DNA of 64,000 bases from a virus. The stretch covers positions 33,473 through 97,472 of the IMG/VR virus record IMGVR_UViG_3300044625_001067; one strand, written 5' to 3'. Positions 398 to 62,636 of the stretch are shown piece after piece; within the stretch, counting starts at the first letter, position 1, and every line of letters starts with the position of its first letter. The notes below the pieces were generated by a model. It saw only the letters and a program-made list of their open reading frames with translations. It did not search any database and had not been told where the DNA came from. Both the position numbers and the translations under genes were made by a program.

Positions 398-476
398 CAT
401 AAGCAGGGCGGTTTCCCGAACATAAGCAGGGCGGTTTCCCGGCTTGTTTCTGCTCAGCAGAAACGGTATAGTAAGT
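398..476 (+). promoter_or_regulatory. conserved intergenic element (promoter/operator-like), with an internal 23-bp duplication
   Basis: aacataagcagggcggtttcccg occurs twice, followed by cttgtttctgctcagcagaaa (hairpin 2) and cggtatagtaa. The start codon is 3 nt after the element. Confidence 0.55.
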
Positions 477-478
477 TC

Positions 479-883
479 ATGAAAAGCAAAGCCCCGATGA
501 TCTACGCCACCGCCGCTCGCTCCCCAATCGCGCACATCCTGGGCGGGTCCCAGTTCACCGCAGAACCTTGCGACTCTCCCGCAAAACAGCGGAGGCAGTG
601 GTGGGACGTGTGTGAGCGCCCAGACCAAGACATTTGCCTTGAGGACGGCGAGTTTCAGCTTTCCGGACCGCACGGCTTCCGCAGAATCGCACGGTTTACA
701 GGGCGAATGCGCTGGGTCAACTCCCACACCTGCGCCCCCACAGTCGAAGTCTTCGATGTGGAAACGGTAGTTGCAATGGTTGGTGACCTGCCTGTGATCC
801 TGGGGTGCCGAGGCGAGCGCATCAAGGGAACCTGGTGGACTCACTGGAATGCTGTGAACCACGATGTTGTTGCCTTGCAGTGA
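479..883 (+). CDS. hypothetical protein (134 aa)
   Basis: ORF 479..883 begins 3 nt after a copy of the intergenic element (398..476). No motif recognised. Confidence 0.5.
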   Translation: MKSKAPMIYATAARSPIAHILGGSQFTAEPCDSPAKQRRQWWDVCERPDQDICLEDGEFQLSGPHGFRRIARFTGRMRWVNSHTCAPTVEVFDVETVVAMVGDLPVILGCRGERIKGTWWTHWNAVNHDVVALQ

Positions 884-1344
884 AGAACGTGAAAGTTTTC
901 CTTGACGATGAAAGGCCCACGCCAGACGGCTGGGTCCGTGCCTTCACAGCTCCTGAAGCCATCGATCTTCTTAAAACCGGAAAGGTTACACAACTTTCCC
1001 TTGACCACGACCTTGGGCCGGAAGACGCAGGAACTGGATACGACGTTTGCCTGTGGGTGGAAGAGAAAGTCTTCTCTCAAGACTTTTGTACTGAGGACCC
1101 TTTTACACCTCCAATCATGAGTGTGCATTCCGCCAACCCTGTTGGCCGGCAACGAATGGAATTTGCTATTCAAATGATTTACCATCACTTCAAGGTTACT
1201 CAGCCTGTGGTGTGGGACTCCTTTAAGGAAACCCTCCAAGAGAAGCGACGTAGCGGGTCCAGAGAAGCCTTAGATGCCCTTGCAAAGCTTGGCCAGGAGT
1301 CTAATGATTACGGTGATGATTACGGACCAACGACGCGAGACTGA
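883..1344 (+). CDS. hypothetical protein (GTG start inferred)
   Basis: The frame is open to 805 but no ATG precedes the conserved part. GTG at 883/892 lies right at the stop of the upstream gene. Residues KVFLDDERPTPDGW...LSLDHDLG are present. Start uncertain. Confidence 0.4.
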   Translation, partial: KNVKVFLDDERPTPDGWVRAFTAPEAIDLLKTGKVTQLSLDHDLGPEDAGTGYDVCLWVEEKVFSQDFCTEDPFTPPIMSVHSANPVGRQRMEFAIQMIYHHFKVTQPVVWDSFKETLQEKRRSGSREALDALAKLGQESNDYGDDYGPTTRD

Positions 1345-1380
1345 ACTCGCTTCAGATTCCAACACGAGGACAGACCGTTG

Positions 1381-1435
1381 CCGGTACGGTTTTCCGCCCC
1401 CTTATTCCCTCCACAAAAGGGGCTATAGTTAGGGG
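1381..1435 (+). promoter_or_regulatory. degenerate copy of the intergenic element
   Basis: cggttttccgccc, the hairpin cccc-tccacaaaa-gggg and ctatagtta. Confidence 0.35.
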
Positions 1436-1453
1436 GTAAGAAACACGAACAAA

Positions 1454-1651
1454 ATGGGCGTCATTGCCGACTCACTCCGCTCCACACTTCGAGAGCTGGC
1501 TCAGGCCGATGCCCGGCTCTACCGGGGCCTGGCCGACGAGCTTGGGTCTCATGCTCCAGCGCTCCCTAGCGCCGTGACTGAGGCGGAACTGGCCGCTGCT
1601 GTCGCGCTGCTCAAGGCTAACGGGTACCGGGTCACGCCGCCCAAAACCTGA
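1454..1651 (+). CDS. hypothetical small protein (65 aa, Ala-rich)
   Basis: ORF preceded by a degenerate element copy (1381..1435). Confidence 0.4.
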   Translation: MGVIADSLRSTLRELAQADARLYRGLADELGSHAPALPSAVTEAELAAAVALLKANGYRVTPPKT

Positions 1652-1679
1652 GATTCCCTGCCCCCCGCACTCTATCCTC

Positions 1680-60910: not shown

Positions 60911-61848
60911 GGTTGGTTGCGTGGGGTGGGGTAGTTTTCGGTACGAAGGTAGGTCAAGTACGAGGGTAACTCTTGGTAAAAGGCTTTATACGGGAGCAAG
61001 TTCGCAACGAAAAAGTTGTCGATTAAGCTCCCAAACACCTTAAAACCCTTGGAGAAAATTCCGTGAGTTACATAGAGGTCAATTCGAGACGGGTCGAACT
61101 GACGTAGCACCTTGGCGAGTTCGATAAAGGTGCGACCGCCATCGCAGATGTCGTCCACAATCAGAAGGTTTTTGCCCTTGTAACTGACGTCTTCTGGAAC
61201 TTCCGTCCTTAGGATTTGCCCGTCTTCAGGGTTGCGAACTTTCGTAGCGTACACTACAGAGTGGAGCCCCAGTGTTTGTTGTACGAGGGTTGCTCTTTCG
61301 ACTGCACCTTTATCCGGAGCAATCACAATTGTCTCAGCACTAAACTCTTGCCCCCGGTCTTTGAACTTCTGGAGAAACAGTTGGGGTTGTAGGTTGTTGA
61401 ACTCGCAGCCGATTTCGGTTCGAAAGAGCTCATTTGCAACGTGGCTGTGCACGTCCCATGTGTACACCCGGTCGCACACTCCCTTAAGATAAGGGGCGAG
61501 AGCTTTTACAAAAGTTCTTAGCGAAAACGCTTCCCCTTCAGCGCACTGGCGGTCTTGGCGGCTATAAGGTAAGTACGGGATGTCCAATTGTAGACTTCGC
61601 AGCACAGGAAGGTCTTTGATGGCCGACAGAGTCAGAAGAAGTTCTGCGAAACTTTCTCCGCTGTGTATGTCTGCGTCTACGATAATGTCAGTCGAATTTG
61701 TTGGAGTGTCGTGCAACCGGACCTGCCTTTCACCGGCACTGAACGTAAAGGAGGTCTTTGAAATCTTGTACAGGTTTTGTCCGTCGCGATTCGAGTAAAC
61801 CTCAATCGGCTCTGTTTTCTGATACTCTTTAGTTTCGGTCACGTGCAT
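60907..61848 (-). CDS. ribose-phosphate pyrophosphokinase family protein (PRPP synthetase, or NARP1 Adps-type ADPR pyrophosphokinase)
   Basis: PRPP-binding loop NLLIVDDICDGGRT. 313 aa, typical of class I Prs. Element copy at 61870..61915 upstream. Confidence 0.7.
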   Translation of the reverse strand: MHVTETKEYQKTEPIEVYSNRDGQNLYKISKTSFTFSAGERQVRLHDTPTNSTDIIVDADIHSGESFAELLLTLSAIKDLPVLRSLQLDIPYLPYSRQDRQCAEGEAFSLRTFVKALAPYLKGVCDRVYTWDVHSHVANELFRTEIGCEFNNLQPQLFLQKFKDRGQEFSAETIVIAPDKGAVERATLVQQTLGLHSVVYATKVRNPEDGQILRTEVPEDVSYKGKNLLIVDDICDGGRTFIELAKVLRQFDPSRIDLYVTHGIFSKGFKVFGSLIDNFFVANLLPYKAFYQELPSYLTYLRTENYPTPRNQP

Positions 61849-61869
61849 TGTTGTTTTACGGTGTGAGCT

Positions 61870-61915
61870 TACTATAGCTTGTTTAGGGGCGAGGGTAAAG
61901 GACGGTTTCCCGCCG
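61870..61915 (-). promoter_or_regulatory. intergenic element copy upstream of the PRPS-like/NAMPT-like operon
   Basis: tactatagcttgtttaggggcgagggtaaaggacggtttcccgcc. Confidence 0.5.
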
Positions 61916-61932
61916 CGTACGGGGGGGTGAAA

Positions 61933-62199
61933 CTAGACCGTGTACCCACTTCCGCTGCACTCGTACGGTAAGTCCTGCAGTACTCGGTAGTAAAGCTCAC
62001 GATACGCATCGTAGGCAATCATCTCCATCCACAAAACAAGAGAATAATCTACCCCCATGAACTCGTCAAAGTCTTCCGCTGTGGAGCGAAGGTAGCAGTC
62101 TCCAATCTCCCCGTCTCTCTCAAACTGTTCGTAGTCTTCGGTTAGTTGTTGGAGGTTTTGCTTGGTAAGTGCTTGGATTCTGTCTCTGAGGGTTTTCAT
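61933..62199 (-). CDS. hypothetical protein (88 aa)
   Basis: ORF 61933..62199. Confidence 0.4.
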   Translation of the reverse strand: MKTLRDRIQALTKQNLQQLTEDYEQFERDGEIGDCYLRSTAEDFDEFMGVDYSLVLWMEMIAYDAYRELYYRVLQDLPYECSGSGYTV

Positions 62200-62564
62200 T
62201 GGGTTTGCTCCGGCGAGTGGGTTAACGGGGAGGTGCGAGTGCGAAAGGGCAGGACATACTGAGTCTCTTCGGACAAATCGAGACTTTCTTGCGCGAGTTG
62301 CTCGTATGAGAGCAGCTTAATTGAGAGAGCACAGTCAAAAGCTTTGGCCACTTTCACCAGGAGATCTATGCTGTGGTCGTTTATCTCGGGGTCTTCTAAC
62401 CACTCTACGACTCTCAATTTGACCCCAACCTTGTCTGCAAGTTGTTGTTTTGTCAGACCTCGCTTTAGTCTGTTTATTTTTACTTGCCAGGAAATCGCTT
62501 GCTCAATGGAGGCTTCCATGTAAGCTTCTCGGTACTCTTTGTCGTCCCACTGCGGGTTTGTCAT
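62196..62564 (-). CDS. helix-turn-helix (XRE-like) DNA-binding protein
   Basis: GLTKQQLADKVGVKLRVVEWLE matches an HTH pattern. Element copy at 62587..62636 upstream. Confidence 0.5.
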   Translation of the reverse strand: MTNPQWDDKEYREAYMEASIEQAISWQVKINRLKRGLTKQQLADKVGVKLRVVEWLEDPEINDHSIDLLVKVAKAFDCALSIKLLSYEQLAQESLDLSEETQYVLPFRTRTSPLTHSPEQTQ

Positions 62565-62586
62565 TGCGGGTGTCCTTCAACTGATT

Positions 62587-62636
62587 TAGTATAGCGTTTC
62601 TGCGATGCAGAAACAAGGGCGGGAAACCGCCCCCCT
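62587..62636 (-). promoter_or_regulatory. intergenic element copy upstream of the HTH regulator gene
   Basis: tagtatagcgtttctgcgatgcagaaacaagggcgggaaaccgcccccc. Confidence 0.5.

Follow-up and report, generated by a model that had tools for sequence, protein, structure and literature searches.

An intergenic repeat, which joins G/C-rich hairpins to a promoter-like sequence, marks a stretch of 64,000 nucleotides of viral DNA (IMG/VR record IMGVR_UViG_3300044625_001067, positions 33,473 to 97,472). This stretch is hereafter called the window, and all positions refer to it. The repeated unit measures ~50–90 bp, and recurs every ~2 kb in a single orientation. Judged by its sequence, the element is a new lineage-specific family of cassettes of the PeSL (promoter-early stem-loop) type, carried by an unclassified, uncultured phage lineage with genomes of ~190 kb. 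Each copy quite probably unites a host-type promoter, terminator-like hairpins and a patch for recombination.

The 3' half of the element would be a promoter read by the host primary sigma-70-family holoenzyme. Transcription would start ~7 nt after the -10 hexamer. In about one fifth of the copies this position corresponds to the A of the start codon, and the mRNA would be leaderless; the other copies would specify leaders of ~15–50 nt, rich in C and A and devoid of a Shine-Dalgarno (SD) sequence. The 5' half would host a hairpin which abuts the -35 hexamer (H2) and an optional distal hairpin (H1), a third hairpin (H3) being present in about half of the elements. In RNA made from the upstream gene, the hairpins would most likely act as terminators or attenuators, and every gene or small operon would form an insulated transcription unit with a promoter of its own. 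The repeated unit would also serve as a homology patch, at which recombination may add, delete or swap single-gene cassettes between related phages.

PeSLs have been identified in the T4-like phages phi1/RB49 (PMC2839356), and later in PST/T4 and nt-1/KVP40 (PMC4122927). They are formed by a sigma-70-like promoter and a polyG/polyC stem-loop, located upstream of the -35 box, between the two boxes, or overlapping one of them (PMC2839356), and are divided into five subclasses according to the position of the stem-loop (PMC2839356, PMC4122927). Their consensus is lineage-specific. They reside in hyperplastic regions, before ORFans, and mark points of insertion, deletion and replacement (PMC2839356, PMC4122927). 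Promoter activity, terminator activity and the formation of minicircles have been shown by experiment (PMC2839356). PeSLs have so far been described in cultured T4-like phages only; the present family resides in an abundant uncultured lineage.

Copy number and placement

Copies were defined by a 49-nt position-weight matrix (PWM), built from aligned copies and used at a cut-off of at least 15 bits. The matrix finds 33 sites in the window, between positions 426 and 62634, and none in 20 dinucleotide shuffles, in agreement with the count of more than 30 intergenic copies given in the first-pass annotation of this DNA. An nhmmer profile search of the window added just 3 sites, all marginal. When at most one mismatch is allowed, CGGTATAGT is found 16 times (7 expected; 16 reached by 0 of 100 shuffles), and GGGCGG-N4-CCGCCC 13 times (0.16 expected). 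The 8-mer most over-represented in the window is GGGCGGTT, with 30 occurrences against 2 expected. The repeat element is genuine, and very regular.

Copies reside outside predicted genes in 32 of 33 cases, in a window that is ~66% coding, and the motif is therefore not equally frequent in coding sequences. All 33 copies have the orientation of the next gene, as previously noted: those located up to 10.4 kb are on the plus strand, those from 16.2 kb onward on the minus strand. Copies were confined to one strand per locus also in 59 related loci. The PWM scan finds no copy in 10456–16239 or 16289–18723, in keeping with the reported absence of the element from 12.1–16.2 kb and 16.3–18.7 kb. Hairpins of the GGGCGGTT type essentially never stand alone, the promoter being always present. 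The plus and minus gene arrays converge at 12092–12115, with stop codons only ~22 nt apart, and a GGGCGG-type hairpin is not present there; the hairpins are found with promoters only.

Three other views of the repeats were discarded. Copies are 0.3–4 kb apart, and separated by genes; an array of clustered regularly interspaced short palindromic repeats (CRISPR), dismissed also at first reading, is rejected on these grounds. Selfish repeats, similar to repetitive extragenic palindromic sequences (REPs) or miniature inverted-repeat transposable elements (MITEs), were rejected on anatomy. The enriched k-mers AAAGTTT and AAACTTT, considered as a second motif, are scattered in coding sequence and have no common context.

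Promoter and hairpins

Conservation figures refer to 172 unique copies, relatives included, numbered in such a way that the -10 hexamer spans -12 to -7. Copies aligned on TATAGT share the consensus TTG(Y)(Y)T–17 bp–TATA(G/C/A)T, with a G at -14. In the -35 hexamer, T(-35) and T(-34) are conserved in 92% of the copies each, and G(-33) in 69%, TTGTTT and TTGCCT being the commonest versions. The spacer always measures 17 bp, and features C(-15) in 80% and G(-14) in 95% of the copies. Percentages in the -10 hexamer are T95 A98 T84 A91 (G52/C23/A23) T98. According to the first-pass annotation the element lacks a sigma70-like -35 box, but TTGCCT or TTGTTT is located exactly 17 bp upstream of TATAGT.

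H2, the proximal hairpin, is made by a G-run and a C-run around the core CGGTTTCC, and its 3' arm ends at C(-36), next to the -35 hexamer. Its mean free energy (dG) is -8.4 kcal/mol. Stability is marked (z < -1.5) in 25 of the 33 window copies, and 56% of unique copies reach a dG of -7 or below. The T-rich -35 region serves as the tail of H2, with an average of ~5 T in 8. In three copies (7354, 31510, 61876), rather than in one as first stated, the H2 loop is inverted to GGCGGGAAACCGCC. Distant relatives (L107, L099, L068) have lost the 5' G-run, and the unchanged 3' sequence pairs with a different 5' arm (GGAAGCC/GGCTTCC, GGAAAC/GTTTCC, GAACC/GGTTC); pairing of H2 is thus maintained by a change of partner.

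H1, the distal hairpin, accompanies 15 of the 33 copies of the window, and 56 of the 172 unique copies. The GC palindrome had been viewed as occasionally doubled; a second palindrome is indeed there, but it is a distinct distal hairpin, with CGGTTAACCG as its core. H1 and H2 are 21–23 bp apart, core to core, and the sequence between them varies. Copies 51602 and 54028 carry the distal motif in inverse orientation, so that it folds with the proximal one into a single long hairpin.

H3 is an inverted repeat in the spacer, from -34 to -14. Canonical pairs account for 71% of its positions in register, against 43–56% in slid registers. At least 7 pairs are formed in 58% of the copies; after an exchange of 3' halves among copies the figure drops to 33%, and it never exceeds 44% in 500 trials. 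By a stricter rule H3 is present in ~44% of the copies. The short variable hairpin of the first-pass annotation therefore exists, but it lies within the promoter spacer, and only about half of the elements form it well. The stem TGTTTCTGC/GCAGAAACG was found with 14 different 3-nt loops. Changes on both sides turn this stem into TGTCTTTGC/GCAAAGACG, TGGTTTTGC/GCAAAACCG, TGTTTTCTC/GAGAAAACG or CTTTCC/GGAAAG. These changes, and the change of partner in H2, are the outcome of the covariation check.

H3-type palindromes are rare outside promoter spacers. One case is L068, where L068:1492 (minus strand) and a second variant carry an extra hairpin, CTTTCTGC-ACC-GCAGAAAG, between H1 and H2, in addition to the one in the spacer, which shows that hairpin modules can duplicate or move within the element. 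The other is located before tRNA-Ser, at ~11224. The region 11195–11242 (+), between tRNA-Gln and tRNA-Ser, features an H2-like hairpin GGGCACATCTATGTGCCC, TTG and the H3-type sequence GTTTCTC-GTA-GAGAAAC, with no -10 hexamer. It may be an element devoid of the promoter half, and work as a processing or termination signal in the tRNA operon.

Selection for hairpin formation seems to fit these data better than a symmetric operator, because stems change in a compensatory manner, loops are free to vary and the pairing partner changes in distant relatives. Of the two roles originally assigned to the palindrome, that of terminator hairpin is plausible, and that of symmetric operator fits less well. 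The overall picture of a terminator-promoter cassette, in which the GC hairpin would end the upstream unit, is similarly plausible. Like intrinsic terminators, the elements have a T-rich tract behind a G/C-rich stem, just past the upstream stop codon. In contrast to them, the T-rich tract is broken up (TTGCCTTT or TTGTTTCT) and is at the same time the -35 hexamer, and many stems are mismatched. Attenuation of upstream transcription by the hairpins is most likely, by analogy with PeSLs, and stem stability and the T-rich tail support it in part.

Several observations weigh against the cassette made of promoter, terminator-like hairpins and recombination patch. T(-44) and T(-43), in the H2 loop, are ~85% conserved, and GGTTTCCNCCC is retained even after the pairing partner has changed; both exceed the needs of pairing. 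H1 and H2 also keep a constant distance across a variable sequence. Together these traits leave room for a protein reading CGGTT(A/T)(A/C)CCG. H2 and H3 vary in strength independently of each other, with no compensation (Spearman -0.05). Comparison of G.T with A.C pairs does not distinguish action as sense RNA from action as DNA, G.T pairs being in no excess. Neither H2 nor H3 is strong in about one quarter of the copies. A terminator rule of the E. coli style is passed by only 2 of 12 element copies in 40–58 kb. Start sites, termination and timing are predicted from the sequence. The term host sigma derives from the pattern of the promoter. Lastly, the protein scan described below covered part of a ~190-kb genome, and a phage sigma or polymerase may lie elsewhere.

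Some of these features would also suit palindromes acting as protein sites. A dimeric regulator, of phage or host, would bind CGGTTAACCG and CGGTTTCCCG near -65 and -43.5 (class-II activator geometry), and the same or a second regulator would bind the spacer palindrome and turn all promoters on or off in concert. This is unlikely, but carries some weight. Conserved loop bases, the spacing of H1 and H2 at two helical turns, the persistence of GGTTTCCNCCC in distant relatives and the lack of G.T excess agree with it. The dominant H3 stems recur unchanged in many copies around a variable centre of 3–4 nt, a pattern expected of operators whose centre makes no protein contact. XRE-type helix-turn-helix (HTH) proteins are encoded in the window, and the authors who described PeSLs speculated on a protein binding GGGG...CCCC (PMC2839356). 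However, both-sided changes in H3 and the swap of partner in H2 are expected of a structure, not of a fixed protein specificity. The distance of H3 half-sites from the dyad differs between classes, and the fixed position of H2 follows just as well from the use of the -35 hexamer as its T-rich tail. It is rather doubtful that a dedicated phage protein reads the pair of CGGTT(A/T)(A/C)CCG sites 21–23 bp apart, or the spacer palindrome, or both, for co-regulation or for cassette excision and integration. If it did, the hairpin stack would be more than a passive terminator and homology patch, and one phage protein would control ~100 promoters per genome together, for instance by shutting them all off early. 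Another outcome would be the catalysis of cassette excision and integration by this protein, in an integron-like system with a promoter in each cassette.

The promoter half of the cassette matches the pattern recognized by primary (sigma-70-family) sigma factors, and would be an extended -10 promoter of host type. The near-invariant A(-11) and T(-7), along with TTG, the 17-bp spacer and G(-14), lead to this assignment. Several copies are called also by an independent sigma-70 consensus scan, as TTGCCT-17-TATAGT or TATACT. T4 early promoters depend on the host sigma-70, occur in dozens of copies before small early genes, and have A/T-rich, UP-like upstream regions and no obligatory hairpins. 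The elements resemble them in copy number and in conservation beyond the two hexamers, and differ from them in having a G/C-rich, structured upstream part. Read as promoters, the copies provide a ready-made promoter map for this phage group, with approximately one transcription unit per 2 kb.

The first-pass annotation favoured promoters specific for the phage, because the -35 hexamer was thought to be missing. A promoter with TATAGT as the -10 hexamer stands; the preference for a phage sigma factor, a phage RNA polymerase or a MotA-like activator bound at about -30 to -50 does not, as canonical hexamers and start-site spacing make a phage-specific polymerase unnecessary. Such recognition is improbable, although some features point to it. 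Conservation extends to C(-36) (90%), C(-40) (92%) and the CGG ahead of the -10 hexamer; positions 4–6 of the -35 hexamer are pyrimidines, not ACA, and G or C, rather than A, is found at -8. TTGCCTTT loosely resembles a MotA box, and Mot-box versions of PeSLs are known in the T4-like phage nt-1 (PMC4122927). Against this, TTG, the 17-bp spacer, TAnnnT, A(-11), T(-7) and G(-14) form the pattern of primary sigma factors, and the spacing of leaderless starts fits selection of start sites of the sigma-70 type. The TGCCT core lies ~2 nt further upstream than a MotA box. Similarly, in T4 middle (MotA/AsiA) promoters the MotA box (TGCTT) is near -30, whereas the elements have TTG at -35 to -33 and a 17-bp spacer. 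No sigma factor, RNA polymerase, MotA or AsiA was found among the Pfam and PHROG families listed for 197 proteins (95 from the window, 102 from related loci), a set drawn from DNA biased towards element-rich regions and covering less than half of the genome.

Start codons provide the best available sequence evidence for the start position. An ATG is located exactly 6 nt past the -10 hexamer in 38 of 174 unique copies (~22%), in 30 distinct sequence contexts. At any single offset from 7 to 20 nt ATG is found in at most one copy, and a second cluster occurs at 21–30 nt. As ATG is fixed where a sigma-70 promoter initiates, transcription would start ~7 nt past the -10 hexamer, and copies with ATG at offset 6 would yield leaderless mRNAs. 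In the window these copies have their -10 hexamers at 467, 16247, 18731, 27984, 33966 and 47720. The distance of 15–160 nt from element to start codon, given at first, is to be revised to 6 nt in several copies, and mostly ~21–58 nt, a few longer, in the remaining ones. SD-like 4-mers were found upstream of only 15 of 111 predicted genes of the window. Upstream regions and leaders are rich in C and A and poor in G, as in ...CACGCAACCATG and ...AAACAAAATG. Few SD-like sequences and leaderless starts point to a host which initiates translation without SD pairing, and constrain the range of possible hosts.

Cassette exchange among relatives

Pattern scans of IMG/VR identified the element in ~29 contigs, up to 189.9 and 201 kb long, from about two dozen datasets; the one of 189.9 kb is IMGVR_UViG_3300044970_001522. 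Each of these relatives either resembles the window at 70–96% identity or has more copies in other genome regions, and one related locus hosts 13 copies in 13 kb. Many single-match loci, retrieved by two viral pattern scans, have no PWM copy and are chance matches.

Relatives 90–96% identical to the window differ from it by insertions and deletions (indels), the boundaries of which lie at most 30 nt from an element in 11 of 63 cases, against 6% expected (binomial p = 0.0015). Two deletions have been resolved at the sequence level. The segment 25177–25489, which encodes one 92-aa gene, is missing from L038, L020 and L037. A single hybrid element is left, in which the upstream flank and GGGCGGTTTAC of copy 25497 are joined to CCCCCTTTCCTTTCCGACAGGAAAGCGGTATAGT of copy 25138. 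L101 lacks 47756–49568, and the junction connects ...ATAGGGCGGTTTCC of copy 49544 to CCCCTTGCCTCCGTGG... of copy 47720. In all these hybrids the crossover falls inside the H2 core GGGCGGTTT/CGGTTTCC, which is the longest stretch shared by both parental copies. L008 carries a 1244-bp insertion at 45130, with an element on each side, and both L008 and L035 feature insertions of 350–363 bp, 15–28 nt from copy 42951..42999. L074 lacks 36377–38809, one boundary being inside the element at 36332–36380. An open reading frame (ORF) similar to homing endonucleases (37374–38507, plus strand; phrog_314) is located in this interval, on the opposite strand within a minus-strand gene array.

Hybrid junctions show, at the sequence level, that recombination between copies shuffles cassettes. 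Natural population variants record cassette swaps at single-nucleotide resolution. The anatomy of the promoter, the leaderless spacing, the covariation of hairpins and the crossovers inside H2 are seen directly in the aligned copies. Promoter strength, termination and early timing are predicted from the analogy with the PeSLs of phi1/RB49.

It is highly improbable that a recombination system of its own, specific for structure or for site, acts on the hairpin stack in place of general homologous recombination, which would make the region a phage cassette array similar to attC-bounded ones. As in integrons, imperfect palindromes bound single-gene cassettes, which are gained or lost as units. Both resolved deletions cross over within the same 8–15-nt H2 core, and HNH and homing-endonuclease genes are present, one of them adjoining an element-bounded indel. 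In both events, however, the H2 core is simply the longest identity between parental copies, and short homology explains the crossovers. Only the 11 boundaries mentioned above are near elements, and no integrase or recombinase was seen among the families listed for window proteins. Each cassette has its own promoter, whereas integron cassettes are promoterless and depend on IntI.

Promoters of the N4 virion RNA polymerase consist of an obligatory short hairpin with a 3-nt loop and a specific loop purine, have no -35 or -10 hexamers, and direct transcription from a point ~11 nt past the loop. In class-B copies a 9-bp stem and a 3-nt loop are located ~11–12 nt upstream of TATAGT, but it is hardly conceivable that a virion RNA polymerase recognises an extruded H3 and starts at GGTATAGT, since this hairpin lies between canonical -35 and -10 hexamers in ~44–58% of copies only, its loop bases are unconstrained, the two hexamers and G(-14) are the best-conserved positions, ATG fixed 6 nt past the -10 hexamer argues for a start downstream of TATAGT, and there are dozens of copies, not a few at one genome end.

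The PeSL-type cassette is favoured also by direct comparison with known PeSLs. The two share a sigma-70-like -35/N17/-10 promoter fused to a G-run/C-run stem-loop, which lies upstream of the -35 hexamer (H2) or between the boxes (H3, in about half of the copies); a stem-loop in the spacer is among the commonest arrangements in phi1 (PMC2839356). In both cases many co-oriented copies precede small accessory genes (33 in 64 kb in the window), and copies are found at indel or replacement points of close relatives, with crossovers inside the element. The consensus is lineage-specific, TTGYVH...TAWWAT in nt-1 and of the TTGYYT...TATASTT type here. In contrast to PeSLs, which feature one stem-loop, the elements have 2–3 hairpins each. 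Their upstream part is G/C-rich, with a hairpin abutting the -35 hexamer, in place of an AT-rich region, and no SD sequence is present at the 3' end, ~22% of the copies being leaderless. Both the core (CGGTTTCC/CGGTTAACCG) and the distance between H1 and H2 show strong conservation. The carrier seems not to be T4-like. The missing AT-rich region and SD sequence would reflect host usage, and are descriptive traits, not essential to the PeSL concept. With free loops and compensatory stems, the 172 variants represent a natural data set on spacer hairpins as terminators, operators or recombination sites.

Individual copies and surrounding genes

On the plus strand, the first copy (406..474, 52 bits) has an H1 core at 409, H2 GGGCGGTTTCCCGGC, TTGTTT, H3 GTTTCTGC-TCA-GCAGAAAC and TATAGT at 467–472, followed by a leaderless ATG at 479. 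A weaker copy at 1383..1431 (29 bits) has TATAGT at 1424. Copy 4759..4807 (45 bits) features the hairpin GGGCGGTTACCCGCC and TATGAT at 4800, copy 6229..6297 (41 bits) the H1 core CGGTCAACCG at 6233 and CATAAT at 6290. The next three copies drive no ORF, and lie upstream of the tRNA cluster at 7.7–11.3 kb: 7054..7102 (-10 hexamer at 7095, 41 bits), before a region of tRNAs and noncoding RNA; 7313..7361 (-10 at 7354, 43 bits), with the inverted loop GGCGGGAAACCGCC; and 10386..10455 (H1 CGGTTAACCG at 10390, -10 at 10448, 38 bits). The sequences 7095–7140, 7354–7400 and 10448–10490 share a transcript start of ~36 nt, AAAGGGGTGGTT..GAGAGCTTCGCTCCTC, with a hairpin inside. This sequence has no match in Rfam, and could represent a small RNA, or the leader of a tRNA precursor.

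All the remaining copies are on the minus strand. Copy 16240..16310 (49 bits) has H1 at 16297, a strong H3 and the -10 hexamer at 16247, with the leaderless start ATGGAAAAC; copy 18724..18792 (26 bits) has H1 CGGTAAACCG at 18779, TATAAT at 18731 and a leaderless ATG. Two copies are weak, 20863..20911 (17.5 bits) and 24176..24224 (20 bits), the latter with a good hairpin, GGGCGGTTTTCCGCCC, a poor -35 hexamer and TAAAGT as -10. The indel 25177–25489 is bounded downstream by copy 25131..25200 (H1 at 25187, H3 CTTTCC-GACA-GGAAAG, -10 at 25138, 53 bits) and upstream by copy 25490..25538 (TATGAT at 25497, 42 bits). Copy 27977..28046 (42 bits) carries a perfect H1, GGGCGGTTAACCGCCC, at 28029–28044, and the -10 hexamer at 27984, with a leaderless ATG. 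The inverted loop in copy 31503..31551 (27 bits) reads GGGCGGGAAGCCGCCCC. Copy 33959..34007 (55 bits) has a perfect GGGCGGTTTCCCGCCC, TTGCCT, the -10 hexamer at 33966 and a leaderless ATG, and is followed by copy 34380..34428 (TATACT at 34387, 46 bits).

Copy 36332..36400 (50 bits), with H1 at 36388 and the -10 hexamer at 36339, forms one boundary of the L074 indel. Copy 40206..40274 (48 bits), with H1 at 40261 and the -10 hexamer at 40213, is called by the consensus scan as TTGCCT-17-TATAGT. Four copies follow: 41669..41717 (H3 CTTTCTC-GAA-GAGAAAG, -10 at 41676, 51 bits), 41981..42029 (-10 at 41988, 52 bits), 42951..42999 (TAAACT at 42958, 55 bits) and 44809..44857 (-10 at 44816, 54 bits). 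Copy 45123..45190 (H1 at 45177, -10 at 45130, 35 bits) is the site of the 1244-bp insertion in L008. The indel 47756–49568 is bounded downstream by copy 47713..47782 (H1 CGGTTAACCG at 47770, TAAACT at 47720, leaderless ATG, 42 bits) and upstream by copy 49537..49585 (-10 at 49544, 28 bits). The two copies with an inverted distal motif are 51595..51665 (TATAAT at 51602, 42 bits) and 54021..54090 (-10 at 54028, 42 bits), the long hairpin of the latter being GGGAAACCG...CGGTTTCCC.

Further downstream lie copies 55333..55381 (TATACT at 55340, 55 bits), 56514..56585 (H1 CGGTTAACCG at 56572, -10 at 56521, 57 bits) and 57783..57852 (H1 CGGTTAACCG at 57839, TAAAAT at 57790, 46 bits); in the last, the hairpin and T-rich tail are called terminator-like. 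Copy 61869..61917 (30 bits), with an inverted loop and the -10 hexamer at 61876, precedes the PRPP synthetase and NAMPT genes, and copy 62586..62636 (TATACT at 62593, 50 bits) precedes the gene of an HTH_3 protein (62196–62564). A possible divergent copy at 59355..59400, before the gene 58706–59296, has a hairpin, GGGGGTTTACACCCCC, which overlaps the -35 position and is followed by GGGGTATAAT; it is a marginal nhmmer match, outside PWM scoring.

Searches for known relatives of the phage, or for its host, gave little. In a comparison of 7.9 kb of the window with 50,697 phage records no DNA match was found. The search of 185,579 bacterial and archaeal genomes with the element pattern gave, among the matches listed, only single scattered chance matches, and no clue to a host or a prophage. 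Motif strings retrieved unrelated primers only in a full-text literature search. The flap endonuclease matches mostly non-T4 phages, at no more than 33% identity, and NAMPT matches are below 60% identity; neither protein classifies the phage. The best NAMPT match labelled as phage, CAKLQF020000015.1 (L240, 'Acinetobacter phage MD-2021a'), is evidently an Acinetobacter chromosome contig, not a phage, annotated with housekeeping genes throughout.

Small ORFs make up most of the genes around the copies, the others including tRNA genes and genes for RNA repair and NAD salvage. Encoded in the window are 13 tRNAs, two RNA ligases, a polynucleotide kinase (PNK), Thg1, a Ro/TROVE-like protein, NAMPT and PRPP synthetase. 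The RNA-repair and tRNA set is dense, as at 28662–30140, 38217–39296 and 52198–53430 (minus strand) and in other genes. It includes a Ro/TROVE-like protein (DUF2828 and DUF7788), Rnl2-like and Rnl1-like ligases, a polynucleotide kinase/phosphatase, and a Thg1-like tRNA-His guanylyltransferase. NAD salvage is represented by NAMPT (59396–60910) and PRPP synthetase (60907–61848). The Rfam scan of the window finds tRNAs only, two of which, at 26382–26493 (minus) and 8772–8838 (plus), are tRNA-like genes with no ARAGORN call; the former, 112 nt long, may contain an intron or be otherwise unusual. Related loci L059–L118, which lie outside the window in other regions of these phage genomes, encode NadA, a class-I (Trp/Tyr) tRNA synthetase, EF-Ts, an ADP-ribosylglycohydrolase and a DUF1517 protein. 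A Tet/JBP oxygenase with a TAGT glycosyltransferase, and an amino-acid:DNA transferase, are also encoded there, suggesting that the DNA is hypermodified.

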